A stretch of DNA of 34,750 bases from an uncultured virus (IMG/VR IMGVR_UViG_3300022833_000006) (IMGVR_UViG_3300022833_000006), one strand, 5' to 3'; positions 1-28,900 are shown, counted from the stretch's first letter. Notes: generated by a model from the letters alone, not told the origin. Numbers and translations are program-made.

Positions 1-599
1 TTCATAGAATTCATCCACGCATCCGTGACCGTGACTCCAAATTGAAGATTCTGAATTGGATTTCCTTCGTCACCAATTCTAAGGAACTCCATTATGTCTT
101 CATGCTCTACTGGTAGGTATAAAGCACAAGCTCCTCTTCTTGATTCACCTTGTTTACATTTATCTATAATTGTATCATAGATTTTTGCATAGTGAACAGG
201 TCCATCCGCATTCCCACCACCTGAGATTGACGAACCGCGTTTTCTAATGTTACCTAAGTACATGGATGTTCCACCACCGTATTTAGACATCATACCTATT
301 TCTCTTGCTCCATTTAGAATACTATCCATCGTATCATCAATGTCAGATCCGTAACAACTTATAGGTAAAGTTTTTTCATATCCAAAATTACACCATACAG
401 GAGTTGACAAACTATAATAACCTAAAGCCATATAGTTTTCAAATTTTTCAGCTCAGCCTTTTACTCCTAGTATTCTTTCTGCGTGATTTGCTATGTCTTT
501 AATTCTTTGCTCTGGAGATACCCCTTCTCTTAAGTATCCACGAGAAAGAAATTTTCTTGACTCTTCGTTAAGCCAATAATATCTATCTGTTTTATTCAT
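1..599 (-). CDS. nrdA: Ribonucleotide reductase class Ia alpha subunit, 5' part (runs off window); one in-frame TGA read as Trp
   Basis: Manual translation from ATG 599: MNKTDRYYWLNEESRKFLSRGYL...GVKG*AEKFENYMALGYYSLSTPVW...PISCYG...KYGGGTS...KQGESRRGACALYLPVEHEDIMEFL. TGA at 455-453 (codon 49). Lies directly downstream of nrdB. Confidence 0.93.
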
Positions 600-652
600 T
601 TAATTTTTATATAACATTAATGACTATATTAACATAACCATTAATAGTTTTG

Positions 653-1627
653 TTAGAACAAGTCGTCCTCTGTTATACTTTCTGATTTTTTGTTATAATC
701 AATACTTTTTTTATAAAAGAAATCACTTTCTTTGGTTGATTTAATTTCAACGTCAAACCACATTGTACTTTCTAACTTTTGAGTTTGGACCTCAAAAGCT
801 TTACTCATTCCAATGCTTTCTAAACTGTTATTAAACCTGTTTTTAATAAATTCAGTAATTGTTTCCTTTGATAAGAAATCTAGTTCACCTTTTTCAAAAA
901 TCCAATCCAAAACTTTACACTCGGCTTCAAGAGCCTTAACGCATGCAGATTTAATTATTTCTTCAAATTCTTTATCAAACCATTCAGGGTTTTCTTTTTT
1001 AATAATATTAATTAATTCAATACCAAAATTACCATGTACATCTTCTTCCTTGCTGGTTGCTTCTACTATATTTGACACTCCTTTAAATAAATTTAATTCT
1101 TTATTAAATGACATCATTATCAGAAACTGGCTAAATAAAGAAACGTGTTCTATAAATAGACTAAATAAAAGGATAGATTTTGTATACATCTTATCACTTT
1201 TACTTCTAGTTCCATCAAGGTATTTACTAAGATAAGAAATCCTATCTTTAATAGCTGGTACATCGGTAATTGTTTCAAATTCACTTTCTAAGCCAAGAAC
1301 TTCAAGTAAGTGTTTATAAGCATCAAAGTGCCTAGCTTCACTCTCACTAAATGTAGCTCCTACTGATTGAATTTCATATTTTGGTAGACGTTTATACAGA
1401 TCACCCCAAAACGCTTTCACGTTAACTTCTATCTGAGCAATTGCAAGCATGGATCGCTTGATTGCTTCACGTTGACTGTCTGTAACTTTAGTCATAAAAT
1501 CAGAAATGTCTTCTGTAATATTAAACTCAGTATGAATTCAGTATGAATGCCTTATTGCATTTTTATATTTAAGTAATTCGGGATACTCATAAGGTAACAC
1601 GTTTTTTCTTTTTTTAAATATATTCAT
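653..1627 (-). CDS. nrdB: Ribonucleotide reductase class Ia beta subunit; true start 1627, one in-frame TGA=Trp
   Basis: Diiron motifs EARH and EEDVH; C-terminal DFFY. Upstream extension MNIFKKRKNVLPYEYPELLKYKNAIRHSY*IHTEF places TGA (1540-1538) on the conserved W of the NrdB W-x-x-x-E motif. ATG overlaps the previous stop (TAATG). Confidence 0.95.
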
Positions 1628-1839
1628 TAAATTAGATTTTTAATAAAGTTATTTCTTCTTGTTACTGCTTCTTGTAGAGTTTTTCCTATACCTACATAAA
1701 AGCTTGTTGCTTTAGAATTATCTTTTACATTGACTCTAATTTCAAAATTACCAGTGTTTGTTCTTTTAGTAATTCCTTTAAATCCAGTGTTTGTTTTAAT
1801 TTTATTCATTTTTCTATCTTTTACCGTTTTGTTAAGCAT
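1627..1839 (-). CDS. Small AP2-like DNA-binding domain protein
   Basis: NTGFKGITK...FEIRV...YVG...TLQEAV..RN resembles the AP2 domain of phage HNH-AP2 endonucleases; no HNH motif present. Confidence 0.55.
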   Translation of the reverse strand: MLNKTVKDRKMNKIKTNTGFKGITKRTNTGNFEIRVNVKDNSKATSFYVGIGKTLQEAVTRRNNFIKNLI

Positions 1840-2134
1840 CTTTTACAAATACTCCATTTTGCATTTTACCAGTTCTTTTACTTATAATATTATAAGCACC
1901 TTCAAGGCAATCTGTTAAATTTACATTTTGTAATTCTGCTTGTAAAATGATTGTTACCAAAATATCACCAAGGGCGTCATTGATTTCTTCTTTATCATTT
2001 TTGTTTATTGCATCAAGAAGTTCATTAACTTCCTCTAATGTTTTGATAGCCTGAGCCATAGGTGTTGCTTTTTCAAGAATACCTTTGTCTGCTCCTCATT
2101 TTACTACTAACGGTTGTAATTTACTATATTCCAT
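1832..2134 (-). CDS. MazG-like nucleotide pyrophosphohydrolase; true start 2134, one in-frame TGA=Trp
   Basis: EEVNEL...DALGDILVT...AYNIISKRTGKM motifs. Extension MEYSKLQPLVVK*GADKGIL places TGA (2098-2096) at the W typical of the W-A-x-D-K/R-G motif in this phage family. Confidence 0.9.
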
Positions 2135-2162
2135 ATCTTTATTAGAATTAAGTTTTTGTTTT

Positions 2163-2738
2163 TTAGAATATATCAGAAATATTTTCTAAATTTATTTGTT
2201 TATTGTTTTGAAACTCATAAGTTTCATTGTTAATATTTAACAATTGACCAAGTTCACTATTTTTAGATAATTTGACATTTAAATCTTTTTCCATTTTTTC
2301 TCTTAACTTGTCATTTTTGTTAAATATATCATCAAATCTTTTAATAGTTGAATTTACAAAACCTGGTATTTTACCATATAATTCTATTCAGTATTTCTTA
2401 ATTTGCATTTTGTAATCATCTGAAAGTTTAGAATAATTACCTTTTATCAATTTAAGTATATCTTCATGATATTCTTCTGGTATTTTATATTCATAAATAA
2501 CATTAGCATTAACAGAATAAGATTTTACATATACATCATTGTCAGTAAGTATATTTTCTTTTTCTGTAAATTTAACATCTCTGTAATTAAAATTACATTC
2601 AATATAAAACTTACCTATTTTAGAATCTAAATTAGAAAATAAATAAGTGTTTATTATATGAGATTGTATATTTGAATTTATATCAACTCATTGTGTTATT
2701 ATAGGTAAAACATAACCATGACTAATATTTTTTTTCAT
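2163..2738 (-). CDS. Hypothetical protein, 191 aa, visible only with TGA=Trp
   Basis: Fills the apparent gap between MazG and the nuclease. ATG 2738, TAA 2165-2163, in-frame TGA at 2690-2688 and 2390-2388 (MKKNISHGYVLPIITQ*V...IPEEYHEDILKLIKGNYSKLSDDYKMQIKKY*IELY). Confidence 0.85.
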
Positions 2739-2739
2739 A

Positions 2740-4083
2740 TTATTTAGAATTTATATTATTTAAATCTTCATAATATTTTTGTATAAAATTATCATTTTCT
2801 TTTGGAGCTGAATTAACAATTTCGTTATTTGATTGTTTACTTAATAGATCCAAAAAAGCTGCATCTAAACCTTGAATAGATTTTTCTTCAATAACTTTTT
2901 CTTTAGTAACTTTTTTTGCAGTATCTTTTTTATTATAATATGATACTTTTTCTTTACTATTAGATAATTTTTTATATTTTTTTACATATTCTTCAAATCC
3001 AGGAGCTGTTTCAACTTCTTCATTTATTAAATTATCAAAATTCCTATTATTAGTAAATCTCCTAATAAAATTAAAACCGTTACCACTTTTTCTGTTATTT
3101 CCTAATGATTCATATCCTTTTTTATAATAATCGTAACTATATTCAAAAAGTTTATTATCTATGTGATATTTAATTTTAGTTATAGTTTCACGAATACCTT
3201 CAATATAAACACCTAAATCTGTGTGAAAACCATAATATGCCCCATAAACATTTTCATTATTTATTTTAAATAATAAAGGTTCTTCAAAATCATTAACAGC
3301 AACTATACAAGGTTCTAAAACATTATATTTACTTATTGATAAATTATCATCTTTATATTGATTAATAGCAAGAGTGTAAATACAAGCTTGTATATCATAT
3401 CTATATTTGTAATAACTATTTTTAAAATCATTCATTTTAAATGAAGTAAATTTTAAATCTATTTCTTGAATTGTTTTATTTTTATGATCAATATGAATAG
3501 TATCAATATAACATTTAAATTTATTACCTTCATATTCAAATTCAATTAAAATTTGATTTAAATTCTGAAAATCACTTGAATTAGTATTATTAAAAAATTT
3601 ACTTGTATATTTATTTTTTTTAATTTTATTGTTCATATTAGTAACACTAATATAATCTTCAGATGTAATTACAATTCTATTACCAGCTTCTAATGTATCA
3701 ATTAAAGAATCTTTTATTTTATCTATTCTTTCATATATTTTAGCAGGAGTTTTAATATCACTTTTAAATAAACCATTTTCTATACATAACTCCATGCATA
3801 TATCTTTAAAATCATCACTATTAAGAGATTCTTCGTTTATAGTACCTTCTAACTCTTTAGTAACCATATCTAAAAAAGCATTTTCCATTGATGTAAGCTT
3901 TATTGGATTTTCACTTACATAATATAAATCATCAAAATTTTCATAAATATAATTATCTAACATTTTACCTTTTGATAAACCTTTAGTACTCTTTTTTCTT
4001 TCTGTTATAAGAGAAGAAGGTCCTTCTTGTTTAAAATTTAAGATAGAACTATATGAATGATAATCTTTATCTTTGTTTAACAT
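2740..4083 (-). CDS. PD-(D/E)XK exonuclease (RecE/ExoVIII-like) with long C-terminal extension
   Basis: KCYID...IDLKFT...YRYDIQACIY motif arrangement. Confidence 0.75.
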   Translation of the reverse strand: MLNKDKDYHSYSSILNFKQEGPSSLITERKKSTKGLSKGKMLDNYIYENFDDLYYVSENPIKLTSMENAFLDMVTKELEGTINEESLNSDDFKDICMELCIENGLFKSDIKTPAKIYERIDKIKDSLIDTLEAGNRIVITSEDYISVTNMNNKIKKNKYTSKFFNNTNSSDFQNLNQILIEFEYEGNKFKCYIDTIHIDHKNKTIQEIDLKFTSFKMNDFKNSYYKYRYDIQACIYTLAINQYKDDNLSISKYNVLEPCIVAVNDFEEPLLFKINNENVYGAYYGFHTDLGVYIEGIRETITKIKYHIDNKLFEYSYDYYKKGYESLGNNRKSGNGFNFIRRFTNNRNFDNLINEEVETAPGFEEYVKKYKKLSNSKEKVSYYNKKDTAKKVTKEKVIEEKSIQGLDAAFLDLLSKQSNNEIVNSAPKENDNFIQKYYEDLNNINSK

Positions 4084-4461
4084 TTAATATACTTTTAAAT
4101 AAAAACCAGGTTTTTCTTTATTATACCCAGTGTATTTTCCTTTAATTTTAAAAGGAAAGGGAACCATTTCTGTAATGTTGTCATCATCTATCCATCCAGC
4201 ATGAGTCATCTCATCTTGAATTGTTTGAATAGGATTTACCCAATCATATTTATGATGAGTACCTCTTATGAAATGTACCCCTATTTTATAAGGTTTTTCT
4301 TTACCTTCTATCATCTGGTGGAAAGCATCTTTATTATCTTTCCACCATTCTGCAGTGTTTGTTTTTCATTTTTTAGTAGCTTTAGAAGCTATAAAATGTC
4401 TACCAGTTCATCTGCGTCCATTTTTACTTGATGGCACTGAGCCATCGCAAAATAACATCAT
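4084..4461 (-). CDS. Putative RusA-like Holliday junction resolvase; true start 4461, two in-frame TGA=Trp
   Basis: MMLFCDGSVPSSKNGRR*TGRHFIASKATKK*KTN...YDWVNPIQTIQDEMTHAGWIDDDN; D-x-x-N...D...DD pattern of RusA. TGA at 4410-4408 and 4368-4366. Confidence 0.75.
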
Positions 4462-4473
4462 ATTATTTCATTT

Positions 4474-4614
4474 TTATTTTTGTTTAGTTAGAAATATTTT
4501 CATAGTTCTATTATTATCTTGTAATTGTATTTCATCAATACTACAATTCATATTTACATAACTTCTACCATTATGATCTATTATTTCTACTCTAGTTACT
4601 TTTGTTGTTTTCAT
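4474..4614 (-). CDS. Small hypothetical phage protein (46 aa)
   Basis: MKTTKVTRVEIIDHNGRSYV...LQDNNRTMKIFLTKQK; fills the gap in operon orientation. Confidence 0.65.
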   Translation of the reverse strand: MKTTKVTRVEIIDHNGRSYVNMNCSIDEIQLQDNNRTMKIFLTKQK

Positions 4615-4945
4615 TATACCATTTAATAAATTTAATTACTGCTTTATACATTGTTTTAATATCTGTATAAATAAATTTACATATAACTCTATCCAATTGT
4701 TTATTGAAATCCTTATCTTTATCTAGTGTATCTAACCTTTCAATTTTTTGAATTATAGGCATTAACCAATCCCATGATTCATGAAATTTAAAATCATCTA
4801 GTCTAGCTTTATTTGTTTCATACATGTTACTATCTACAGCTAAATAAGGTCTATTGTGAGGAGTAGTATAAACTAATCCTTTTTTTTCCCAACCCATAAA
4901 TTCAGCAATTAACTTATTACCATTTAATACAAAATTCTTTTCCAT
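4592..4945 (-). CDS. Hypothetical phage protein (NKLIAEFMG...SWDWLMP type)
   Basis: ORF track; overlaps neighbours in operon fashion. Confidence 0.75.
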   Translation of the reverse strand: MEKNFVLNGNKLIAEFMGWEKKGLVYTTPHNRPYLAVDSNMYETNKARLDDFKFHESWDWLMPIIQKIERLDTLDKDKDFNKQLDRVICKFIYTDIKTMYKAVIKFIKWYNENNKSN

Positions 4946-5621
4946 TGTTTTCTTTTATTAATTCGTTAATTTGTTTAAAATGATTACAATTCCATTCTTC
5001 ATTTCGTTTTGCAGCAAGTTCAGGATGTATACATTTTAAAGCATAACAAAATTTTAATTTGTTTTCTGGAACAACTTTGTGAAAAGTTCTCATAACATCG
5101 TTTCCCCATAAACAAAATATTACACCTGGATTATTATCTATAATAGTATTAATAGTAACTTTAATAAATTCATCCCAAATATGCTTGTGTGGATTTACCA
5201 TACCTGCTTGAATAGTTAATGATGTATTTAACAATAAAACATTTTGTAAAGCCCAATTTTGCAAAGTTACATCAAAATCAACAATTAAAGTATTAGTAGT
5301 TTTTTCTATACATTCTCTTATTTTAAATAAAGAAGGTGACACCCTAAGTGTATCAACTGTATTTGCTACAGCAAAGCCGTTTGCTGATTCATTAGGGTAA
5401 GGAGAATCTCCTAATATCACCACTTTAATATTATTATAAGGGACATATCTAAAAACTTTAAATATATCTTTTTTTAAAGGAAATATTTGTCTTTTATTAT
5501 AAACTTGGTTTAAAAAAACAATAAGTTTTCTAAAATAATCTGATTTAATTATATATAGAAAACTTTCATCATTAACCCAGTTACCAAAAGTTTTTTTAAA
5601 ATTAATAATATCCTTATTCAT
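4917..5621 (-). CDS. ung: Uracil-DNA glycosylase family 1-like protein (variant active-site motif)
   Basis: KVVILGDSPYP, PSL, WALQNVLLLNTSLT, LWG, HP, CNHF motifs. Confidence 0.85.
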   Translation of the reverse strand: MNKDIINFKKTFGNWVNDESFLYIIKSDYFRKLIVFLNQVYNKRQIFPLKKDIFKVFRYVPYNNIKVVILGDSPYPNESANGFAVANTVDTLRVSPSLFKIRECIEKTTNTLIVDFDVTLQNWALQNVLLLNTSLTIQAGMVNPHKHIWDEFIKVTINTIIDNNPGVIFCLWGNDVMRTFHKVVPENKLKFCYALKCIHPELAAKRNEEWNCNHFKQINELIKENNGKEFCIKW

Positions 5622-7128
5622 CTACAGTATTTGTAAAATCATCATAAAATTTATGTTCATTAAGACCTTTAGGGTCATTAATATTCATTTTTTTCATAAC
5701 TTTAACTCTTTCTTTAAAATATTTTATATTATTTTCACAAAGAGAATCTGTAAGTTCTGGGAATTCACTTTTAGTAAGTTTTACTAATGTTTCATATTTA
5801 CTATTTAATTTACTAAAAGATTTTAAAAATTTAGGATTATTAAATTTATCTTCTAATTTGTTAGCTGCCATAACCATTATTGCTGAACTTAACATAAAAT
5901 TGTAAATTTTAAAAAAGTCAAAAGTATTATTATGTTGTCTAAATTCTACAGTTTGTTTGTTAGTAAATATAATAGGAATCATGTTAAACCATACGTAACG
6001 ACTTCTAATGTTCCATTTAGATGTACCATTAGGGTCTTTAGGATGATTTTGTATTTTTTCTAAATCATTACCAAAATCTGAAAATGAATATCCACCAGAT
6101 AAATGCTTAAATAAACTATCAAAAGCTAATTTTTTAAGTTTAGGTAAAGGTTTATCTGTGTCAGACATCATAATACTTAAAGGAGTACAATTCATTGGAC
6201 CACTGTAATTTTTATTTTTACCGTAATCAGTAGAAATTTTTTTAGACAATGGTTGTAAAGAATACATATCTTCTTCTAGCATATTTGCTATATTATTTAT
6301 AGATAAAATATTGTCAACATCTCTTTTAAGACCTCCTAAATGTAAATGTAAAGCACATGTAAAATCATAATCAGTTCTTTTTTTTAATAATTTACATATT
6401 TCCATTACATTATATAAACCTTTTCTACCATCTAAAGGAACTGTAACATATTCTAAACCTGATATACTACCATCTCTTAATGCTACTATACCGTGTTTAT
6501 AACACAATCTATCAGGTAAATAACCTTTTGAAGTTTCAAATTCAAGACCAAAAGTTATTTTATTTTTTTCTAATAAAATACCTAATTCTTCTACCATTTG
6601 ATTTTTAACACTAGGAACTTTGTAATACTGATTATATGATTTTTCAATCATTTTAGTTACAAATCTACTATCGTAGTTTAACGAATTTTTATCTACAGGT
6701 GCTTTTCCTATTTTATTAAAAGAAGATTTTGACATTTCATCTTTTTTATAAAAATTACCTGTATTTAAATGTTCAGAATACTTACTACCTAATGTTTCTT
6801 CATCTATACAATTAGTTACATTAAAATTGTCTACAACAACTTTTATGTTTTTAGTAGGATTAGGTGAAAAAAATCCTAATATAAAAGAATCATCTTTATT
6901 TATACTTACTATACCCCTTGTTAAAAGTTGTTTATTTACTAAAACGTAAGATTTATTTTCATGATCAAATTCAATAAGACCATTATTAAATCTATGATAT
7001 CTACCGTTTACTTTGTAACATCCACCACTTCCTTCTATGTTGTTATCACCTATTTCGTAATAATCATTTTGTATTTTACGACATTTACTTTTTTCTAAAT
7101 TCTTACCTTTGTAAGTTTTAACTATCAT
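5614..7128 (-). CDS. Putative amidoligase (COOH-NH2 ligase fold)
   Basis: TFGLEFET, DGSI..LEYVT.PL, CALHLHLG, RY.WFN, TVEFRQH motifs. Confidence 0.85.
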   Translation of the reverse strand: MIVKTYKGKNLEKSKCRKIQNDYYEIGDNNIEGSGGCYKVNGRYHRFNNGLIEFDHENKSYVLVNKQLLTRGIVSINKDDSFILGFFSPNPTKNIKVVVDNFNVTNCIDEETLGSKYSEHLNTGNFYKKDEMSKSSFNKIGKAPVDKNSLNYDSRFVTKMIEKSYNQYYKVPSVKNQMVEELGILLEKNKITFGLEFETSKGYLPDRLCYKHGIVALRDGSISGLEYVTVPLDGRKGLYNVMEICKLLKKRTDYDFTCALHLHLGGLKRDVDNILSINNIANMLEEDMYSLQPLSKKISTDYGKNKNYSGPMNCTPLSIMMSDTDKPLPKLKKLAFDSLFKHLSGGYSFSDFGNDLEKIQNHPKDPNGTSKWNIRSRYVWFNMIPIIFTNKQTVEFRQHNNTFDFFKIYNFMLSSAIMVMAANKLEDKFNNPKFLKSFSKLNSKYETLVKLTKSEFPELTDSLCENNIKYFKERVKVMKKMNINDPKGLNEHKFYDDFTNTVDE

Positions 7129-7154
7129 TTCATTTTATTTTTTTAATGTTAACT

Positions 7155-9275
7155 CTATTGGTTAAATTTGTTGTTTCTATTAATAAATTCCATTTCATCT
7201 TCATCAAAATATTCATCATCATCATTTTTTATTTCTTTTGAATTTAAAATATTATCAATCCATTTACTTAACGGATTATAAACACCTTCTAAATTTTCGC
7301 AAAAATTAAAAACATTAGTTGCTAATTCATTGTTATCAGAATATTTACTAACAAAATCTATTCCTAAATCTAAAGATTCTTTTATTGAAGTGTTAAAATC
7401 ATCTAATGCAACTTTCATGTCGTCATTTTCGTCTTCAAATTCGTCAACATTTGAATAATCTATACCTGATTCATAATCTTGAAAATCTTCTTCAAATTTA
7501 TTATTTTTATTAACAAGTTTATTTATATTTTTTTCAAAACTTTTGTCTTCAAAATAAGCATTGTCAATAACTTTTTTATTACTTAAAATTATTTTATTAT
7601 TTTTTATACTATTAAAAATATGATTATAAAAACTAGCAACACAAATACCTTTTCTTATACTATAAATATAAGTAGAACCTATTGCTTGTACAGATTCACT
7701 TTGTACTACTTTTCCTTTTCTTAAAATTTTATTTTTAAATAAATGAGCATTAAATTCTAATAAATCTTCTTTTTTATTTTTTAAAAATGAATTTTCATAA
7801 TAAGAAGTTATAGGATAAACACTCATGTGCGAATATTCTTCAAGAGTAAAGTTTTCTGATCCTTTATAATTAATAGTTTCATAATCTAATTCAGTAAGTA
7901 ACATAATACCATTAACTATGTAAAACAAAGTTAAATCAACTTTTCCTAAAACAATATTTTTAGAATTAACTTTATCAAAAAATGAAAAATTATTAATTAA
8001 ATTTTTAGCTTCATGTATTAAATTACTAACATATATAAAACCATTATTTTCACTATAAACATAAATACCATCTTTAACAAGCTCGTTGTTTTGTTTATAT
8101 CTAAAATTTTCAAAAATAACTTTATTATAATTAACCATTTCTTTGCTCCTAATTATTTTCTCATAAAAAATACTTTTTCCAATTTTACTTTCTAAAGGTG
8201 AAATAACATTTTGAATATCATTTGGTATTTTATTTGCACTAATAAATAATTTAGAATTAACAGGTGGTTGTTTTGATTTATAAACAACTAAATTTTTTAC
8301 TGATTTATTGTTATTTTTAGTTTTATCAACATTTTTTCTGTTTTTTTCTTCTTTTTTACGATTAAATTCATACATTGAATCGTATTTTTCATTTTTAGTT
8401 CTATCAATATTAAACAAAGCTTCAATTACACCATTTTTTATTTTATAAAGTATATTTGTTTCAAAAGTATATATATTAGAATCTTTTTCAGTATGTCTTT
8501 TACCTGATATAAGCTCTAAAGGAGCTACTGTAGAAGAATAATATATACTATTTTTAGATTCTTGCCAATAATGCAATGGTCTTTCTTCTTCAGCAACACT
8601 AGTATTATATTCCCATTTTTTAGATTTACCTCTAAATACAAAAACAGTTTCTTTTTCTTTTTGTGAATGTAAAACCAATGCAGCAGCACCTTTGTAATCT
8701 TGTAAAACTTTTATATAATCAGGTTTTTTTACATTAGCTTTAGATATTATTTCTAATAAAATTTCACTATCTACTTTTTCTCTATGTTTATCATCTTTAA
8801 GATTTACTTCATATTTTTCAGCTAAAAATTTGTGATTATCTAAAGTTCCGTTATGAGCACCTATAAAATTAAAACCATCACCAATATCAAACATAAAAGG
8901 ATGTGTATTATTTACACTTTTAATACCTCCTCTTGATGCATTTCTAGTGTGACCTATAATTACGTTACCTACTTTTTTTTTGTACTTTTGGATACTTTCA
9001 TTAATAAATAAATTTCTAAATAAAGCTTCATTGTTTGTACCAATACTGTCACCTTTATGTAATTTTTCATTTATATATAAACCACAAGAATTAGTACCTC
9101 TTTCTTCATTTAAAACACCTAATATTTTAAGTTTATCCATATCAAATGAAGATGGATTTTCACCAGTCCATCCAAATAATCCACAACTAAAAACATCTTT
9201 TTTTTGTGTTTTACTAAAAATGTTTAATAGCATTTGCATAATTAACATTATAATTACTATATTAAATATTAACAT
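7155..9275 (-). CDS. Class II glutamine amidotransferase (Ntn hydrolase) with leader and long C-terminal region
   Basis: CGLFG, RG.NSCG, IGHTRNAS, NTHPF, AHNGTL, VDSE, ERPL motifs. Confidence 0.88.
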   Translation of the reverse strand: MLIFNIVIIMLIMQMLLNIFSKTQKKDVFSCGLFGWTGENPSSFDMDKLKILGVLNEERGTNSCGLYINEKLHKGDSIGTNNEALFRNLFINESIQKYKKKVGNVIIGHTRNASRGGIKSVNNTHPFMFDIGDGFNFIGAHNGTLDNHKFLAEKYEVNLKDDKHREKVDSEILLEIISKANVKKPDYIKVLQDYKGAAALVLHSQKEKETVFVFRGKSKKWEYNTSVAEEERPLHYWQESKNSIYYSSTVAPLELISGKRHTEKDSNIYTFETNILYKIKNGVIEALFNIDRTKNEKYDSMYEFNRKKEEKNRKNVDKTKNNNKSVKNLVVYKSKQPPVNSKLFISANKIPNDIQNVISPLESKIGKSIFYEKIIRSKEMVNYNKVIFENFRYKQNNELVKDGIYVYSENNGFIYVSNLIHEAKNLINNFSFFDKVNSKNIVLGKVDLTLFYIVNGIMLLTELDYETINYKGSENFTLEEYSHMSVYPITSYYENSFLKNKKEDLLEFNAHLFKNKILRKGKVVQSESVQAIGSTYIYSIRKGICVASFYNHIFNSIKNNKIILSNKKVIDNAYFEDKSFEKNINKLVNKNNKFEEDFQDYESGIDYSNVDEFEDENDDMKVALDDFNTSIKESLDLGIDFVSKYSDNNELATNVFNFCENLEGVYNPLSKWIDNILNSKEIKNDDDEYFDEDEMEFINRNNKFNQ

Positions 9276-10089: not shown

Positions 10090-10090
10090 A

Positions 10091-11489: not shown

Positions 11490-11491
11490 TT

Positions 11492-14224: not shown

Positions 14225-14237
14225 TTTTGTTTTTAAT

Positions 14238-14260
14238 AAAAAAGAGGGGTTTCCCCCTCT
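14238..14260 (-). terminator. Rho-independent terminator after the SSB-like gene
   Basis: Minus strand AGAGGGG-GAAA-CCCCTCT followed by a T run. Confidence 0.88.
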
Positions 14261-14274
14261 ATATTTATGACCTA

Positions 14275-14886: not shown

Positions 14887-14904
14887 TATTTTTATATATA
14901 TAAA

Positions 14905-14927
14905 TTAAGTTGACATTGTTGACTTAT
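14905..14927 (-). promoter_or_regulatory. 23-nt repeated leader motif, copy 1
   Basis: Plus strand TTAAGTTGACATTGTTGACTTAT; 22/23 identical to 15636-15658 and at nearly the same distance from the ATG. Confidence 0.65.
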
Positions 14928-14943
14928 ACATACAAACTAATAA

Positions 14944-15618: not shown

Positions 15619-15635
15619 ATATTTAAATTAATAAG

Positions 15636-15658
15636 TTAAGTTGACACTGTTGACTTAT
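15636..15658 (-). promoter_or_regulatory. 23-nt repeated leader motif, copy 2
   Basis: Plus strand TTAAGTTGACACTGTTGACTTAT upstream of the ATPase ATG. Confidence 0.65.
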
Positions 15659-15662
15659 TTAA

Positions 15663-15797
15663 TTAAATAGTTCTAAATCTACGTTTAGCATTCCAAAATA
15701 CTCTTTTACTGTTTCCAACAATAGAATATTTACTTACTTTTTCATTTAAAGTATCTCTTACAGTGTTTAATTGACTGCTATTTTTATTTTGATTCAT
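15663..15797 (-). CDS. Small hypothetical protein (44 aa)
   Basis: MNQNKNSSQLNTVRDTLNEKVSKYSIVGNSKRVFWNAKRRFRTI; manual translation only. Confidence 0.45.
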   Translation of the reverse strand: MNQNKNSSQLNTVRDTLNEKVSKYSIVGNSKRVFWNAKRRFRTI

Positions 15798-15815
15798 TAT
15801 TCTAAAATTAATTTA

Positions 15816-15823
15816 CAAATATA
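15816..15823 (-). promoter_or_regulatory. Possible Bacteroidota -7 promoter element
   Basis: Minus strand TATATTTG matches TAnnTTTG; no clear TTG at -33. Confidence 0.35.
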
Positions 15824-15914
15824 AAAAGAAACTGTTAAAGATGTTAAAAACATTATAATAAGAATACTACTTAAAAGTATAATTTCTAAAAATGTTAATC
15901 TATTTTTTTTCATA

Positions 15915-16994
15915 TTATTTGTTATAAGCTAGCATTTCTGCTTTTATAGATGGGTATGATTCGTAATCTAATAACATAAGATCTTTAATTTCTATATTAT
16001 TATTATTAATATATTTTAATCCATCTATTAATTCAGCTTGTGCTTTAGTACTAATAGTTAAATCACAATTATTATATTTATTAACATCTCTAGATAACTG
16101 TTCTTTAACAGCATCTATATGTGCTTCATAAATATGTACATTAGACAAATCTCCAATAATACCTTTAGGTATCATATTAGTCATTTTACCAATTAGCTTT
16201 GCTAATAATGCATAACTTGCAATATTAAAAGGTAAACCTAAGAATGTATCAACTGAACGTTGATGCCATTTTAAAGTAAATTGGTATTTAGGTGTATCTA
16301 AAGAATTATAATATTCCATATCTAATTCTTTACTACATTTGCCATTTTTAATAGCTTTTACATTTAATTTTTGTTTAATATGATCAGAAGGTTTAACTAA
16401 ACCAGTTCTTTCAAACCAATTTAAAGGTTCAACTAATATTTCAAAACTCCAATGACAAGGTGGTAAAGCCATATCATCTAACTCAGCAGGATTCCAAGCT
16501 GTAACTATGTGCTTTGTACCCATAGGTGTTTCTTTTAATCCTTTTATAAGATTGGATATTTGATCTAAACCTCCTGGATTATTATCTGAAATAAACCAAT
16601 TTCTCCATTGAGCACCATATACTCTACCTAAATCTAAATTCCAACTGTCTGGGTTTTTAAATATTTCTTTAATAGTTGGAGTTTCCCCTTCAGATATAGA
16701 ATAATTTTTAATTAACCAGTTATAAGCATCTTTATTCCAAATATTAATACCATTATCTACAAGATATTTAATATTAGTATCACCACGTAAAAACCATAAT
16801 AATTCTCCAACAACTCCTTTCCAATATAACTTTTTAGTAGTTATTGCGGGAAAACCATCATCAAAATTGTGTACCAACGTGTAACTTGGTATCTGATACC
16901 TAAATACATTCTTGCGATTAGGATCTTCATATCTGAAACCTTCATTTCTTATTTTTTGCAATAATTTGTGATATTCAATATCTATTTTTGCCAT
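15915..16994 (-). CDS. thyA: Thymidylate synthase
   Basis: FPAITTKK, ELLWFLRG, LGRVYGAQWR, AWNP, LPPCH, QRSVDTFLGLPFNIASY, HIY. Confidence 0.97.
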   Translation of the reverse strand: MAKIDIEYHKLLQKIRNEGFRYEDPNRKNVFRYQIPSYTLVHNFDDGFPAITTKKLYWKGVVGELLWFLRGDTNIKYLVDNGINIWNKDAYNWLIKNYSISEGETPTIKEIFKNPDSWNLDLGRVYGAQWRNWFISDNNPGGLDQISNLIKGLKETPMGTKHIVTAWNPAELDDMALPPCHWSFEILVEPLNWFERTGLVKPSDHIKQKLNVKAIKNGKCSKELDMEYYNSLDTPKYQFTLKWHQRSVDTFLGLPFNIASYALLAKLIGKMTNMIPKGIIGDLSNVHIYEAHIDAVKEQLSRDVNKYNNCDLTISTKAQAELIDGLKYINNNNIEIKDLMLLDYESYPSIKAEMLAYNK

Positions 16995-17000
16995 TTGTTT

Positions 17001-17393
17001 TTATTTTAATAATTCTTCTAGTTTTTCAAGTTCAACTTTCATTCCTTGACATATTTCATAACTTTCTTTTTCAGAATAATGTCTAATTTGTCTTTTTAAA
17101 TAATTTACTCTTGATAATATATTCATATCACCAACAATCATTTTTTTTCTTTCATTAAAAACACTTGAAGCAACTGTTACTTGTTCTTTGTAATTAAGAC
17201 TACCATCAAAAGCACTGTATTCTCTAGTTATTATAGTAACTGGAATGTCGTCGTCATCATTTTCTGTAATAGTATGTCTTATACTACCTTTTTCAAGTAT
17301 ATTATCATTATTTTGAAAAAAACTTTCAGTTGTTTTTTCATTTTCAATACTAGTTGTATTAAACACTTTTCCTAATAATTCTTTTGTAAACAT
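17001..17393 (-). CDS. Hypothetical protein with UVR (UvrB/C)-like C-terminal motif
   Basis: LKRQIRHYSEKESYEICQGMKVELEKL resembles the UVR coiled-coil. Confidence 0.55.
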   Translation of the reverse strand: MFTKELLGKVFNTTSIENEKTTESFFQNNDNILEKGSIRHTITENDDDDIPVTIITREYSAFDGSLNYKEQVTVASSVFNERKKMIVGDMNILSRVNYLKRQIRHYSEKESYEICQGMKVELEKLEELLK

Positions 17394-17458
17394 ATCAATC
17401 TCTAGTTGTTATAGTTGAAATTATTTTTAATAATCTTCATAATTCCATTCTTTATTAT

Positions 17459-18589
17459 TTATTCTCTAATTTTGTTAAGCATATTATATACTGATTTTAT
17501 TCCTTTTTCATCATTAGTTAAAGGTAATTCTTTAAAAAAATCAACTGCACCATCAAAATACAAAGGGCAAACAGTGTTACCACCACCATCTCTACATGCT
17601 AAAATTTCTAAAAATCTTATATTGTCTTTGAATTTTTCAATGTTATAGCCGTCTTTTTCAGGATATTTTCTTATACCATGTCTGTAAGGACTAAATAAAC
17701 CTAATGCTAAATCTACATCTCTACTAGTTAACTTATTATCAGCTATATCTACTAAACTAGGTTTTAACCTGTTAGCTTTCATATTATCAAGAGATTCTGA
17801 AGCTGCGGATTGTTGCTGCACAATAACTGGACTATAATTATATCTATTTCTAAGTTGTATAAAATATTTAGAAGAAAGATCTGATATTTCTTGATGTAAA
17901 GTACTACCTTTTTTTGGATATAAAAGAGATATGTGATCAACTATTATAATAACATACTCGTCAGGTCTATCTGCTTTGTAATAATCAAATACTTCATGAT
18001 CTTTAGATTCACCTGTTTTATTATCTTTAAAAGTAACTGTTTTATAATAAGTAGTACCATTAGCCTTAGCGTAATCATCCATATACCTCATTATACCGTA
18101 AGCATGTTTAATGTTGTCTATAAATGTTACAGTTTTATTAAAAAATTCAAAATATTCATTTTGTTTTTCTATTTCTAACAGTATTTCTTCACTAACAGCA
18201 CCACGAGTAGATTGTAATTTAACAGGATCTATTCTTATATTACCTTTTGATGTAGTAAAAAGCCTATTACAAGCAGCCTGTGTCATTTTTTGACGTTCAG
18301 ACATTTCTAATGTAAAATACACTATTTTTAATGTAATAGGACTTTCAGGATTTTGTAACTTTCATTTAATAGGATTATACATATACAAATTATCTGTAAC
18401 TTTTGTTTTACCAACTTTAGTACTAGCTGTAACAAGAGTCATTTTACCTTGTTGTATACCAGGAACCACTTCTTCAAAACGAGGTAGTCCAAAGGGTATA
18501 CAATTTGCTTTTCCAGATATTATATTTTCTCTTCTATTTCATAAATGTTTTTTTAATCTACCATAATTGTCTAATTCTTCTTTTTGCAT
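17459..18589 (-). CDS. dnaB: Replicative DnaB-like helicase; true start 18589, two in-frame TGA=Trp
   Basis: Extension MQKEELDNYGRLKKHL*NRRENIISGKANCIPFGLPRF...TASTKVGKT...NPIK*KLQ supplies Walker A; YFTLEMS, IIVDHISLL, VQQQ follow. TGA at 18541-18539 and 18364-18362. Confidence 0.92.
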
Positions 18590-18619
18590 TTAAATTAATT
18601 GTTAATTAAGTTTTTAAAA

Positions 18620-19321
18620 TTATTCAAGTACATCTTCAAAATCATCATTTTCTTCAACCATATCAAAATCTTCTTCATCTTCTTCATCTAAATCTTGTTC
18701 TAAATTAAAAACATAAACAATGATTTCATTACCACTATTAGGATTATCCATTCTAGAAGAGCTAACATTAAAAGTTGATATAATTTCATCCATATTTTCA
18801 AAACCTTGACAATTAGTATTTGTAGATGCTATTGCACCACCTACAGTAATAGTGTCTAAAAATTCAGTTAACATTAATAAATATAATCTATTAGTTAAAG
18901 CAATTTTTTCAGCTTGAGTTAACTCTAAAACACCAACATTGTCAGAAATTCCTCTATATATATTTGTAATTCCACTAAATGAAGTTAAACCGCAACTTAT
19001 ATCACAAGCATGTGTATTAAATATACCTTTATGAATATTAGCAGTTTGACCTTGAAAAATTTCAACAACAAAAGAACCATTAACATTATTAATATTATGT
19101 AAAATATGTTCAATTGTATTTTTAACAGGTGCAGGCGGTGCTACTGGAATCACTTCTTCTATTACATCTTCAAATATGTTTGTACCATATCTACCTACAA
19201 TATTACGATCATTTATTAAATTATAACGGTTTCCGTTATTAACATCAACTGTTGCTTCGTATTCTTTGTTTAATGTAAGATTATAATTGTTTTCTCTTAC
19301 GCATTTTACTAATTTTGACAT
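18620..19321 (-). CDS. Hypothetical protein with acidic tail
   Basis: ORF track, 233 aa; ISCG and NPNSGNEI motifs; D/E-rich C-terminus. Confidence 0.75.
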   Translation of the reverse strand: MSKLVKCVRENNYNLTLNKEYEATVDVNNGNRYNLINDRNIVGRYGTNIFEDVIEEVIPVAPPAPVKNTIEHILHNINNVNGSFVVEIFQGQTANIHKGIFNTHACDISCGLTSFSGITNIYRGISDNVGVLELTQAEKIALTNRLYLLMLTEFLDTITVGGAIASTNTNCQGFENMDEIISTFNVSSSRMDNPNSGNEIIVYVFNLEQDLDEEDEEDFDMVEENDDFEDVLE

Positions 19322-19325
19322 TTTT

Positions 19326-20168
19326 TTAATTTTTAAGTTTTATTGATTCTTTTCTATCTTTTTGATATATTTTTTCAAAAGCTGCAATATCATACTTTTT
19401 AATTTCCCAAAATTCTTTATTAAGAGCAAAAAAAATTGAATTATTTTTTTGTGCTACTTCATATTCTAATAATGAAAAATGAGAAATACTATTTTTAGTA
19501 TCTACATGATATATATTTGTATTAACAGATAAAATTTTTAAAATTTCTTTTTTAGTATTACCTCTGTAAAACCAAATTCTTGATAACTTAAGAACTTTTG
19601 ATTTAATATTATAATACGTTTCATACCCTCTTGAATCAGGAAAAAAAGATCTAGAATGAACTTTACCATTAATTAACAATTCAGGTCTACACATATTTAA
19701 TATTGAATTATACCTGCTTATAAAAAACAAACAATATATGAAATTTTTTCTTTTTGAACTACTATAATCCATAGCATCTTGAATAAATTTTCTACCAGTA
19801 GCTCCATATAAACATCTTATTGTTCTTAAAACTAATATTCTTTGAGCTATAGTTTTAGTTGTAATTTCAATAAAACCATCTTCATCTACTGTTTTAGAAT
19901 AAGAACATATATCTTTTAAACGATCAAGTAAATTTTTTAATATTACAAAATCTTCTAAATTATAATTAACTTGTCCATTTATTAATTTAATGTAACATGA
20001 ATAAGAATTTAAATTTTTATCTTGTGATCTAAAAAATAAACCATCCCAGCAAACAGAATTTCTTAATTTGTCTTTTTCTGTTATAATAACAGGATAAGTA
20101 ATACTATGTTTAAAAGTTCGACAATTAATTTGTTCTGGTAATTCTTTAATTTGTTTTTTAGTTTGCAT
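19326..20168 (-). CDS. Hypothetical protein
   Basis: ORF track, 280 aa, operon orientation. Confidence 0.7.
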   Translation of the reverse strand: MQTKKQIKELPEQINCRTFKHSITYPVIITEKDKLRNSVCWDGLFFRSQDKNLNSYSCYIKLINGQVNYNLEDFVILKNLLDRLKDICSYSKTVDEDGFIEITTKTIAQRILVLRTIRCLYGATGRKFIQDAMDYSSSKRKNFIYCLFFISRYNSILNMCRPELLINGKVHSRSFFPDSRGYETYYNIKSKVLKLSRIWFYRGNTKKEILKILSVNTNIYHVDTKNSISHFSLLEYEVAQKNNSIFFALNKEFWEIKKYDIAAFEKIYQKDRKESIKLKN

Positions 20169-20174
20169 TTTATG

Positions 20175-20348
20175 CTATTTTATTTTATTAATAATGTATA
20201 TTTCTGGTCTTACCAATGTTTTTTTATTAATGTTCATTTTTTTATGAACTTTTTTTCTAATATCAATAAATTGATCTTTTTCATTAATTTCTTCTGAACC
20301 AATTGTATTTAATTCTCCGTTAATTGAAACTTTCCATTTTGTACTCAT
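20175..20348 (-). CDS. Small hypothetical protein (57 aa)
   Basis: MSTKWKVSINGELNTIGSEE...; fills the gap. Confidence 0.6.
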   Translation of the reverse strand: MSTKWKVSINGELNTIGSEEINEKDQFIDIRKKVHKKMNINKKTLVRPEIYIINKIK

Positions 20349-20358
20349 TTTTTTGTAA

Positions 20359-20946
20359 TTATTTTAATTCTGTTGTCCAATCTGAATTTTCTGGTTCTTT
20401 TTTAGATTGCTCTACCCATATTTCCAAATTAGAAGTTTCTTCTCCTTTGTAATTCTGTTTGTATATAAAATAATCTGCTCTTTGTATGAATTTAAAATTA
20501 CCATTGAAATTTTCAATATACATTTCAGTTGCATTTATTAATTCATCAAAAGTTACGTCTGGATTTGAATCCATAAACCTTTGTAATTTTTTTCTAGTAG
20601 AAAGACCTGAACCCATTGAACCAACTTTTATATCTTTAAATAAAGATCTATATGTTTTTAATTGATTATCTAATTCTTCTTCTTTTCTACTATCTTCTTT
20701 TATTTTGACAAATACTTTAATAACTTTCTTACCTTTATCTCTAAGATACAATCCTTTTGAATCAGATATTAAATACTGTTTTTCAATAAGGTCATTAATG
20801 TAAGCTTTGTTCATGTCATAATCAAAATAAATTTTATTTGAGCTTAAATATATTTTTATAATACACATTAATTGATTAATATTTATATCAAGTAACTTAA
20901 TGTCTTTAAAATTAAATGATAAATTTTCTATATCTCATAATTTCAT
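20359..20946 (-). CDS. Hypothetical replication-module protein (possible initiator/loader); probable start 20946 with TGA=Trp at codon 4
   Basis: In-frame extension MKL*DIENLSFNFKDIKLLDININQL to the track ORF; TGA at 20937-20935. Function inferred from position only. Confidence 0.65.
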
Positions 20947-20975
20947 TTTAATATTTTCATTAATTTTGTTTAGAT

Positions 20976-21128
20976 TTAATAATCCATATCTGTTTTGTCT
21001 ATAAACAAATTGTTATCTATTAAACCTTCATCATCACAAATATTACAATTAATATGTACAAAACCACCTTTGTTAGCTTTTTCTTTCATATATTGTTTTT
21101 CTCCTAAGCATATATTACATAGTTCCAT
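20976..21128 (-). CDS. Small zinc-finger protein (50 aa)
   Basis: MELCNICLGEK...INCNICDDEG; two CxxC motifs. Confidence 0.7.
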   Translation of the reverse strand: MELCNICLGEKQYMKEKANKGGFVHINCNICDDEGLIDNNLFIDKTDMDY

Positions 21129-21612
21129 AATTGTTTTTTTTTATGAATTTTTTAAATCCGTTTGTTGTGTGGTAAGTTTTGTCAGCTTTACCTGCTTTAA
21201 AAGTTTCCATTAAAATTTTAGTATTAACGTCTAGCATAGAGTTAAGAGAAGATTTAGCACCTTCTCTTATAAATCTTTGTTTATAAGTTTCATCATAAGT
21301 GTTTCTAATGTGAACATGATATTGTTTACCAATATTATATCCAATAGGTAATTCTAAAACAGATATTATTTCAAAATCTTTTTTAAGTTTTTCTACTAAT
21401 GATTTTTGATTAACATGAGCCATTAAAACTCTCATTGATTTTTCTGTTTTTAATACAGTATCAACAAGGTTTTTTAAATCTCTACTTGCACAATTTAAAT
21501 TTTCTAATGTTCCAAATTTACAATTATCTGTAGATTTATTTAAAGTCAAAAATTGACCTTTATTATTTGAAAATTTTATGTTTTGTTTATTTATATTTAC
21601 TGATTTAATCAT
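21115..21612 (-). CDS. Hypothetical protein
   Basis: ORF track, 165 aa. Confidence 0.7.
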   Translation of the reverse strand: MIKSVNINKQNIKFSNNKGQFLTLNKSTDNCKFGTLENLNCASRDLKNLVDTVLKTEKSMRVLMAHVNQKSLVEKLKKDFEIISVLELPIGYNIGKQYHVHIRNTYDETYKQRFIREGAKSSLNSMLDVNTKILMETFKAGKADKTYHTTNGFKKFIKKNNYGTM

Positions 21613-21627
21613 TTTTTTTTATTATTT

Positions 21628-23556
21628 TTAATTTTTAATTACGTTAATAATTTTATTAACTTCTCTTAAATAATAGTTATAATCTATATTATAATTATCA
21701 TTGTTGTAATACTGATTAAAAACTGTTGTTTTATAACCAGCTTCAATACTTGATTCTCTATCACCCATATCTATCTCACCAAATATGTTTATTTGTAATG
21801 TAGGTATTTTATCAGGCAATGGTGGTAACTTTTTAACAAGCATTTCACCATCGTTAGAAACGAAATATCTAGTTACCTTACCTAATTCATGATCTTCTGG
21901 CTCATAGTCTTTTACAATCCTTTCAACGAGTTTATTATCACCTGTCATCTTTACACCTAAGCAAAAATCGTGAATACCGTAGTTTTCACAAAAAGTATAA
22001 TTCTCTGATGTTGAATGATTTGACAAATGATTATAAATAGTATCTTCAGGACTAACATTGTTTGCAAAATAATTAGCTAAAGCAATAGCTACAATTCTTT
22101 TACTATGATTTTTGTTATAATCCCTATCCATTTCAAAAGCACCTTTGTATTTAGTATAACCTGTATCAGTAATACTCATGTAATTATTAACATCTCGTAT
22201 TATCATTTTGTCATAAACAGCATATTCCATTACAAGATTAGTTTTATTTTCCCAGGATGTAACTATCTTTTTCATGTAATCTACATCAGTTCTCTTTATA
22301 ATAAAAGTAAAACCGTCAGTGTTTGATTGCAAAAATGTAATATCATTAACATGTTTAAATATTTTCTCCATAAGCATAGCTAAAAGTAATTGACCATTAA
22401 GAGTAATACTTAACAGACATTTGGGATCATACAAAAAACTATACATATCATTCATTTTACCAAATGAACCATTGAGCATTAATTTACAAGCTGCATTACG
22501 TGGATCTGATTTAGGAAATGTCTTTCTTAATTCATATATACTTTTATAAATTTTACTAAAAGCTTCTCCTAAGTGTTTTGGTCTAAATTCATTGTTAATA
22601 GCTAAGTTAGGATAGTAACTTGCTACGTCAATGTCTATGATTACATGAGTTTTATCACTTACATACACTCCAGGTTTAGTACAACCATGTATACCACCTT
22701 GACCAAAATCATTAATAATGTTACCTATCTTACCACTAAATTTAAATTCACCTTTAGTATCTTTTGATACATATGATTTAAAATTAAAAAGAACTTTTTG
22801 CATTTCTTTTGAATCAAACTTAATATAGTCAAGTATTATATCATTAAATATAACTGATTTTCTATAAGTTCTTTTCTCTGATAATTCTTTCTTTTTAATA
22901 TTCATTTCTTTAGATAATAAATCTAAGAATATTTCACTACCAATTTTAGGGTCATTAGCATTTATTAAATTTAAACCATATTCCTCAGATAACTGAAGCC
23001 TTAGCTCAATTTCTTTTTGACATTTGTTATAAAATAAATGTGTAGCATTTACATCATGGTCACAATAAGATATTATTTCAGACATCATGTCTTTTGTAAG
23101 ATCACTGTCTGGTGGATAAGGAAGATCACGTATATTATCCATTCTCATGGCATATTCAAGCCATTTAAGAGACGTTCTACGTGCTTTGTTATCGTAATGT
23201 TTAATCCTAAAAAGATCTACTTGAGATATCTTAACTTGATTATCCCATATTGCAGAATAATCAGCTTGTATTACATTTTGTGCTTCATTGTATATCTCTT
23301 CAGATGTTCATTTTCTTTTAACTTTAAGTATAGTGTTATGTAAGACTGGGTAGTCAAAATTAACATTATTATAACCTATTAAAGTCATGTTTCTTTGATT
23401 AAGAAACTCGTAAAGTTTTACTATGTCTGTTTTGTATTTGTTAATTTCAAATCTTCAAAACTCATTAGTTTCTATATTCTTAAACACAGCAAGAAATAAA
23501 TCTTTATATGTTTCTAAATCGTATATGTAAGTTTTGTTACTTCATTGTTTTTTCAT
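21628..23556 (-). CDS. polB: Family B DNA polymerase; true start 23556 (642 aa), three in-frame TGA=Trp
   Basis: Extension holds Exo I YDLET and Exo II GYNNVNFD; then YCDHDV, DVASYYPN, KLMLNGSFGK, NTDG. TGA at 23544-23542, 23457-23455 and 23310-23308. Confidence 0.95.
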
Positions 23557-25051: not shown

Positions 25052-25081
25052 GGTTAAATTGTTTAAGTTAATTGTTAAAAA

Positions 25082-28859: not shown

Positions 28860-28900
28860 TTTTTTGTTTTTAAATTGTTATTTTTATTGTTTTTTTATAA

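Follow-up and report, generated by a model that had tools for sequence, protein, structure and literature searches.

Recoded phages of the crAss-like group and the gut, among them the Zeta crAss-like phage Lera, read TGA as tryptophan (Trp; translation table 4) or TAG as glutamine, and according to the published passages on them it is chiefly the late genes that are recoded (Yutin et al. 2021, PMC7886860; Borges preprint, 10.1101/2021.08.26.457843; phage Lera, PMC12386605). Passages of the same three sources also mention TGA in some polymerase and helicase genes and many recoded genomes without a detectable suppressor; according to one passage of the Borges preprint (10.1101/2021.08.26.457843), a suppressor tRNA occurs in only 35% of TGA-recoded genomes. 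Here we describe a 34,750-base stretch of DNA ("the window"; 25.6% GC, most genes on the minus strand) from an uncultured virus (IMG/VR IMGVR_UViG_3300022833_000006), in which in-frame TGA codons interrupt genes for DNA replication and nucleotide metabolism. As far as the published passages go, this phage resembles the recoded crAss-like and gut phages in its presumably standard-code Bacteroidota host and in its use of TGA as Trp in part of the genome, and it shares with them the loss of TGA as a stop codon, the presence of close standard-code relatives and the missing suppressor tRNA, which is often missing there as well. It differs in the genes affected: those passages describe structural and lysis genes as recoded and replication genes as standard or "variably" recoded, whereas here the virion genes hold no TGA and only the genes for replication and nucleotide metabolism are recoded.

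In bacteria and RNA phages, tRNA-Trp can read leaky UGA codons, as in the read-through protein of Q-beta, with an outcome that depends on competition with release factor 2 (RF2) and on the next base. Those codons are single sites near gene ends that give a minor extended product, whereas here there are up to three 5' sites per essential enzyme, all of which must be read.

The closest phage in GenBank is Cellulophaga phage phi14:2 (NC_021806; Crassvirales, Steigviridae), with which gene order is conserved. It carries the homologous block, with identities of 46-49% for PolB, 55-58% for DnaB, 61% for RusA, 48% for the SNF2 helicase and 41% for NrdA, and the two phages also have in common an amidoligase cluster, a transfer-messenger RNA (tmRNA) gene and, on the opposite strand, giant genes for virion RNA polymerase. 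The two phages differ in gene structure: DnaB of phi14:2 is encoded in two pieces 2.6 kb apart (L011 12994-13152 and 15766-16674) with four annotated genes between them, and its PolB is annotated as a two-piece join (L011 9636-12081), whereas both genes are continuous here. Synteny and homology, including that of the giant virion RNA-polymerase genes, argue for placing the phage in Crassvirales as a phi14:2-like member of the Steigviridae. A flavobacterial host is suggested by phi14:2, the nearest cultured relative, which infects a flavobacterium, and by the NrdB protein, whose closest match comes from a flavobacterium. Marine Steigviridae are also listed in an Antarctic virome paper, the available parts of which do not mention their genetic code.

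Several records represent the phage and its relatives. A 36.6-kb virus record (G002) is identical to the window across 14,676 bases, and a 66.7-kb record (G001; CheckV estimate 66% complete, with ~27 kb of the phage beyond it) matches along 28,449 bases, the only difference being one 1-base indel away from the TGA sites. Proteins of this phage also occur in public assemblies of 90-97 kb. G001 extends 38 kb past window position 1, through the remainder of nrdA, an SNF2 helicase gene and small genes, and then carries ~32 kb of virion and giant RNA-polymerase genes on the opposite strand. Sequencing runs with matching DNA are labelled salt lake metagenome; exact-word scans of viral and metagenome contigs with the far end of the window and the end of G001 gave no match. 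Two relatives share the TGA trait. One, G004, has 76-84% nucleotide identity; the other, G005, is a complete genome of 100,482 bp with 92-bp terminal repeats and ~70% nucleotide identity. The standard code is used in phi14:2 and in four ~100-kb relatives with ~60% protein identity (G006-G009). The trait is therefore present in two related lineages besides this phage and absent in five standard-code relatives.

When all minus-strand frames of the window were recomputed, we found 13 in-frame TGA codons in eight genes, each at the position that an earlier note on this DNA had given, and under table 4 every TGA-bearing gene was a single open frame with no TAA, TAG or frameshift, as that note had also stated. 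All eight genes lie on the minus strand. The 5' part of nrdA, the large subunit of ribonucleotide reductase (3-599; Pfam PF02867/PF00317), runs off the window edge (full length 544 aa in G001) and has TGA at 453-455 (codon 49). It is followed by nrdB (653-1627, 324 aa; PF00268), with TGA at 1538-1540 (codon 30), a MazG-type NTP pyrophosphatase (1832-2134, 100 aa; PF03819), with TGA at 2096-2098 (codon 13), and a 191-aa protein homologous to phi14:2 g047 (2163-2738), for which no Pfam or PHROG family was found, with TGAs at 2688-2690 and 2388-2390 (codons 17 and 117). A RusA-like resolvase (4084-4461, 125 aa; PF05866, a weak match below the cut-off) has TGAs at 4408-4410 and 4366-4368 (codons 18 and 32), and a DnaB-like helicase (17459-18589, 376 aa; PF03796) has them at 18539-18541 and 18362-18364 (codons 17 and 76). 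The last two genes are a 195-aa homologue of the phi14:2 "replisome organizer" g022 (20359-20946), with TGA at 20935-20937 (codon 4), and family B DNA polymerase (PolB; 21628-23556, with its ATG at 23556), with TGAs at 23542-23544, 23455-23457 and 23308-23310 (codons 5, 34 and 83). A scan of the window proteins gave Pfam support for gene names across the block. A ninth gene, for the SNF2 helicase just outside the window in G001, adds three TGAs, bringing the total to 16.

These TGAs are not assembly errors. Their bases agree across three assemblies (the window, G001 and G002), and contigs of four salt-lake runs, which cover window positions 400-20399 and so nine of the 13 sites at depths up to 330, agree with the window at every TGA. 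Three of the runs are possible sources of the window DNA; the fourth, X4, is a separate sample, and its listed pieces cover six TGA sites with no differences. Coding density in G001 (ORFs of at least 100 aa) rises from 0.874 under table 11 to 0.919 under table 4, and it is unchanged between the two codes in the five standard-code relatives. Table 11 cuts PolB, leaving a longest frame without the first 145 residues, and public table-11 gene calls of DnaB begin at M96.

TGA has also been given up as a stop codon in this phage lineage. The 39 complete minus-strand ORFs of at least 80 aa in the window all end in TAA or TAG, in agreement with the earlier note's statement that no gene of the block ends in TGA. 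TGA was placed like a stop in 0/66 ORFs of this phage, 0/30 of G004 and 2/95 of G005, and in 10/93 of phi14:2, 13/91 of G006, 5/101 of G007, 4/99 of G008 and 4/98 of G009. One small early ORF (28628-28446) has a candidate TGA stop overlapping the next ATG; ORFs shorter than 80 aa lie outside the statement on stops.

Comparison with homologues shows that UGA is translated as tryptophan in this phage lineage. At 8/13 window sites, Trp occurs in at least one standard-code homologue, as the earlier note's reading of TGA would have it; the remaining five comprise two aromatic or hydrophobic sites, a variable one and two that could not be aligned. Against phi14:2, 13/16 sites align, with W at eight, Y at two and I, Q or L at three, and all three SNF2 helicase TGAs correspond to W. 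The standard-code relatives, phi14:2 included, use TGG wherever Trp is retained at these sites. The earlier note had singled out the TGAs in nrdB and MazG as falling on conserved Trp, and both held. Codon 30 of NrdB is W in the closest solved NrdB, 6sf4, where the local context is identical, and it is TGG in phi14:2, G008 and G009 and TGA in G004 and G005. Codon 13 of MazG is W in 119/119 aligned homologues among the matches listed (119 of 120 listed matches, with the phage's own truncated call, P0124, left out) and TGA in G004 and G005. In DnaB, P0001, the closest full-length homologue (76% identity), has W at both TGA sites, although these columns are variable over 44 full-length homologues (W in 2 and 1, respectively); G004 has TGA at both sites, and a marine fragment, L019, shares the TGA at codon 76. 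The RusA-like homologue of phi14:2, g044 (61% identity), has W, encoded by TGG, at both sites, and codon 90 of this gene is TGA in G004 and TGG in this phage. Codon 117 of the 191-aa protein, TGA in this phage, is TGG in G004, G005, phi14:2, G007 and G009, and its codon 17 is TGA in G004 and G005 and Q, I, L or V in standard-code relatives. Codon 83 of PolB is TGG in phi14:2, G006, G008 and G009 and TGA in G004 and G005; codon 49 of nrdA is TGA in G005 and Leu or Phe in standard-code relatives; and codon 4 of the 195-aa protein is TGA in G004 and G005 and not alignable in standard-code relatives.

Neither Gly nor Cys occurs at any aligned site, so the homologue columns speak against reading TGA as Gly (table 25) or as selenocysteine; Rfam scans, without a separate search with selenocysteine insertion sequence (SECIS) models, showed no SECIS, and downstream RNA structure did not differ between TGA and TGG sites (p = 0.48). 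The checks that the earlier note had proposed on base calls (made here for three assemblies and, at nine of 13 sites, run contigs), coding density and homologous residues (W, or Y, F or hydrophobic) thus all came out in favour of its reading. Internal starts offer no way around the codons in PolB, where there is no start codon between the first TGA (codon 5) and the Exo I motif; in G004, two TAA codons lie directly upstream of the PolB ATG. The exonuclease motifs of PolB lie between its TGAs and Walker A of DnaB (residues 55-62) lies between its two, so truncated products cannot work.

The distribution of TGA is highly uneven. The replication strand of G001 has 16 TGA and 103 TGG in 10,541 codons (16/119 Trp codons), and the virion strand has 0 TGA and 62 TGG in 10,508 codons (strand contrast, Fisher p = 0.0015), for an overall TGA share of 16/181. 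This layout is, as the earlier note had implied, the reverse of the late-gene bias described in the published passages. Within genes, the order of Trp codons (A = TGA, G = TGG) is AAAGGG, AGG, AA, AAGGGG, AA, A, AGGGG, GAGGGGGGGGGG and AAAG; in PolB, for example, it is TGA-TGA-TGA-TGG-TGG-TGG. The mean relative position in the gene is 0.17 for TGA and 0.53 for TGG (Mann-Whitney p = 1e-6), and the first 50 codons contain 11 TGA and 15 TGG compared with 5 TGA and 88 TGG beyond (Fisher p = 1.6e-5). A stretch of 12 kb within the block (4592-17393) has 46 TGG and 0 TGA. These data show that TGA is confined to the earliest Trp positions of nine genes for replication and nucleotide metabolism (PolB, the replisome-organizer homologue, DnaB, RusA, the 191-aa protein, MazG, NrdB, NrdA and the SNF2 helicase) and does not enter the genes for virion proteins and RNA polymerase. 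TGA is followed by A (12) or G (4), a purine in 16/16 cases compared with 62/103 after TGG. A purine after UGA is a context that favours nonsense suppression.

Conservation against G004 gives a similar picture. TGG is retained at 40/41 sites, whereas G-ending Lys, Glu, Gln and Leu (TTR) codons are retained at 30/92 (p = 1e-13), so TGA is not a free synonym of TGG. TGA itself is found in G004 at 11/12 shared sites; other A-ending codons are retained at 847/936. Selection thus acts against TGA at the majority of Trp positions, while a few tolerate or retain it. A genome-wide table 4 of the Mycoplasma type does not fit a genome in which TGA makes up only 16/181 Trp codons and TGG is protected at 40/41 sites, and the earlier note's formulation, code 4 in the replication module, is too simple: even there TGA accounts for 16/119 Trp codons, occupies only the 5'-most positions, is absent from a 12-kb stretch and coexists with protected TGG. 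The 5' polarity recurs in the complete genome G005. Of this phage's 16 sites, G005 has TGA at 10 and TGG at the two that lie most 3'; three encode a different residue there, and one could not be aligned. The terminase-, portal-, capsid- and tail-sized genes of G005, assigned by size and position only, contain no TGA; in this phage, the genes for TerL, portal and major capsid protein fall in the part of the genome beyond G001. The passages, titles and abstract openings of published recoding accounts, supplements lying outside this comparison, make no mention of a 5'-first order of TGA, a purine context or protection of TGG, and titles and abstract openings gave no pointer to a replication-only, 5'-polar layout.

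ARAGORN detected no tRNA in the window, in the 66.7 kb of G001 or in G004, and no UCA anticodon hairpin with tRNA flanks was present in the available sequence of this phage, in G004 or in G005. The complete G005 has no tRNA by Rfam besides one that carries an insert (see below), and no RF-1 or tryptophanyl-tRNA synthetase (TrpRS) domain. The search that the earlier note had suggested, for a tRNA with a TCA anticodon, a release factor or a TrpRS, therefore came up empty in G004, the complete G005 and the 66.7 kb of G001, with ~27 kb of this phage lying outside it. ARAGORN run on G005 with relaxed settings and introns returned 153 calls, which we regard as noise.

The insert-bearing gene of G005 (68082-68225, minus strand) scores 46.6 bits with Rfam, and its anticodon loop is enlarged by an insert of 76 nt. 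The orthologous gene of the window (25082-25233, minus strand), missed by ARAGORN and by whole-window Rfam scans, was found through a T-loop motif search and scores 40.6 bits when the short stretch is searched (RF00005, cut-off 29), with an anticodon-loop insert of 81-85 nt. Between the two copies, 21/21 cloverleaf pairs are kept, seven of them by compensatory change, and the gene encodes a genuine, conserved tRNA-shaped RNA. It is the only candidate for the TGA decoder, and its anticodon cannot be assigned: no scheme of insert removal (simple, group I-type or 37/38-type) gives UCA or CCA, and none yields an anticodon shared by the two phages. The tRNA is class-I-shaped, and its insert falls short of the length of a group I intron. 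An 89-aa ORF (24854-25123) that overlaps the 3' part of the tRNA may not be a gene. The available sequence of G004 stops short of this region. A search of the first 10 kb of phi14:2 with a covariance model, R1, with filters off, revealed nothing convincing; with default filters, R1 found no match in G006-G009 and also missed its own source sequences. Standard-code relatives have tRNA matches of 96-116 nt (G006 28857-28972, G009 94435-94545 and G007 7283-7378), two of them with inserts of 24-32 nt by ARAGORN, and insert-bearing tRNA genes may be common in the phi14:2-like group. The exact T-loop motif, GGTTCAAGTCC, has three matches in the window compared with 0.04 expected; the third copy (30483-30583, minus strand) lies in a 1.6-kb stretch without long ORFs and was rejected as a tRNA because of its weak fold, 11 bits with R1 and no Rfam match.

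Other candidates for the decoder fared no better. Genes common to this phage and G005 and absent from the five standard-code relatives included no candidate. A 165-aa protein (21115-21612), which the recoded G004 lacks, shows only a weak structural resemblance to GNAT proteins, based on an Atlas model of low confidence; a 280-aa protein (19326-20168) has no usable structural look-alike; and PHROGs has no family for either. A phage tmRNA gene near the tRNA (25409-25855, minus strand; Rfam RF00023, 58.1 bits, cut-off 47; ARAGORN tag ATVKLAMAA) has a counterpart in the standard-code phi14:2 (L011 4031-4500, plus strand; ARAGORN tag GSSVQKLAMVA) and is therefore not tied to recoding; none was detected in G005. 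The phi14:2 RefSeq table lists no feature for this tmRNA, and several small CDS have been removed there. The 3' end of the window tmRNA was uninformative as a clue to the host, as a 29-mer from it matches at least 120 genomes of several phyla.

We propose, with about even confidence, that selection maintains the 5' TGAs as a lock or throttle on the genes for replication and nucleotide supply. UGA decoding would be conditional or slower than normal and would compete with termination, as suggested by the purine that follows each TGA, by the lack of TGA in virion genes and by its bias to 5' ends. Before the decoding activity was present, a ribosome would stop after 4 to ~100 codons, with little waste; once it was present, full-length replication proteins would be made; and virion genes, needed in bulk, would be readable under either code. 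The decoder would not be a conventional phage opal-suppressor tRNA, and might instead be the insert-bearing tRNA at 25082-25233, a phage-induced change in host translation (RF2 made inactive or tRNA-Trp altered) or some factor of the host. A more specific form, which we offer only tentatively, is that the phage switches how the infected cell reads UGA without a conventional suppressor tRNA and uses the 5' UGAs as a timed lock on DNA replication and nucleotide supply, the switch coming from the insert-bearing tRNA after a processing step, from disabling of RF2 or from an altered host tRNA-Trp.

The principal competitor, possible though clearly less probable than a selected lock, is tolerated drift, in which an efficient but imperfect decoder exists and AT pressure produces TGA where failure is cheapest, that is, at 5' ends and in genes of modest expression; the pattern would then be a by-product of a young or partial reassignment, with the suppressor perhaps in the part of the genome beyond G001. 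AT pressure is evident from the GC content of 25.6% and from the two-fold codon pairs conserved with G004 (847 A/A compared with 30 G/G), TGA is retained no more often than other A-ending codons, and sites turn over, the two most 3' TGAs being TGG in G005 and RusA codon 90 being TGA only in G004. A passage of the Borges preprint (10.1101/2021.08.26.457843) likewise describes loss of TGA stops before sense use. Drift accounts poorly, however, for the 10 sites that are also TGA in a lineage at ~70% nucleotide identity, for the same gene set being hit in three lineages, for the 15 TGGs within the first 50 codons of neighbouring genes that have not drifted, and for a complete genome, G005, without a conventional suppressor. 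We favour a lock over drift because the same sites and gene set persist across lineages while synonymous sites are near saturation. Several points weigh against the lock nonetheless. A gate is deduced from position and conservation alone, and the retention statistics by themselves do not separate it from drift: TGA retention (11/12) is no higher than that of other A-ending codons (847/936), so AT pressure by itself could keep TGA at any site that tolerates it. The 5' bias, too, is what a gradient in cost and nothing else would produce. A suppressor tRNA could lie in the ~27 kb of the phage beyond G001, the argument against one resting on G005. TGG also persists at several early Trp codons of TGA-free genes, with 15 TGG within the first 50 codons. 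A gene with three TGAs needs decoding to be efficient, which is hard to square with a merely leaky stop, and the insert-bearing tRNA yields no UCA under simple insert removal.

The remaining explanations appear improbable to different degrees. There might be no dedicated decoder at all, with host tRNA-Trp reading UGA-purine at a low natural rate and the codons acting as attenuators that keep replication proteins scarce. This unlikely scenario would fit the purine after all 16 TGAs, the failure of our searches to find a decoder and the 5' positions that keep waste minimal, but PolB and the SNF2 helicase have three TGAs each, DnaB, RusA and the 191-aa protein have two each, and a complete purge of TGA stops would not be needed. 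Read-through at the percent level per site would leave ~1 in 10,000 or fewer full-length chains of these essential enzymes. Less probable still is that the host itself reads TGA as Trp, either as a table-4 organism or through a host-encoded suppressor (a possibility raised in a passage of Yutin et al. 2021, PMC7886860), and that the phage follows the host code. The lack of a detected phage decoder and of TGA stops would be expected in that case; at 25.6% GC, however, TGA should dominate everywhere, and it makes up 16/181 Trp codons overall and 0/62 on the virion strand, with TGG protected. The purine bias, moreover, points to competition with a release factor, and phi14:2, the closest relative in culture, grows on Cellulophaga and has TGA among its stop codons. 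Finally, sequencing or assembly error, pseudogene decay in a defective phage, or assignment of TGA to Gly (table 25), selenocysteine or Cys has nothing in its favour apart from the mere fact that stop codons stand inside genes. We consider the chance of any of these to be very slight: the same bases appear in three assemblies and in contigs of four runs, the same TGAs recur in diverged lineages, and the homologue columns are W or Y, F or hydrophobic and never G or C. Artefact and decay are refuted as far as the sequence data go.

The rest of the block resembles that of phi14:2. Based on homologue annotation from phi14:2 and Pfam, the TGA-free stretch (4592-17393, minus strand) encodes UDG, a cluster of amidoligase, GATase, COOH-NH2 ligase and GGCT genes, a primase homologue, an AAA_24 (Sak4-like) protein and thymidylate synthase. 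Part of it (5614-13194, minus strand), comprising the amidoligase, two class-I and one class-II glutamine amidotransferases, a phiEco32-type COOH-NH2 ligase, an ATP-grasp gene (RimK-like in phi14:2) and a gamma-glutamyl cyclotransferase, is common to phi14:2 and every relative examined. At window position 4880, a base present in the window and in run X1 is absent from G001 and from runs X2 and X3, and through this length difference the small ORF that follows UDG goes from 117 aa to 99 aa. Thymidylate synthase (15915-16994, minus strand) matches Pfam PF00303 (ThyA type, 242 bits); the phi14:2 RefSeq homologue is labelled "flavin-dependent thymidylate synthase; ThyX" yet cites PF00303, and looks mislabelled. 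NrdB is closest to the solved flavobacterial NrdB 6sf4 (E 9e-134) and to the proteins of G008 and G009 (74%), with only 28% identity to that of phi14:2, which suggests that the ribonucleotide reductase genes have been replaced within the phi14:2-like group. A Twister-P1 ribozyme-like match lies in the early non-coding region of both the window (27898-27947, minus strand; 43.6 bits) and G005 (72525-72578, minus strand; 43.4 bits), each below the cut-off of 67.2, with E about 1e-6.

This form of recoding is easily overlooked. Only 16 codons are involved, so coding-density tests barely register it, and table-11 gene callers cut away N-termini that include catalytic motifs of PolB, DnaB, NrdB and others, truncated forms of which stand in public protein sets. 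In published models, as their available passages present them, stop recoding serves to delay late genes and lysis. In this phage it falls on the replication machinery, with TGAs positioned as though to cut translation short immediately, and even the complete relative G005 lacks the usual decoder. If the 5' TGAs do act as a gate, code switching would be a more general timing device than has been described, working here in the direction opposite to that of the late-gene model, and there would be an undiscovered way for a standard-code bacterium to read UGA as tryptophan.

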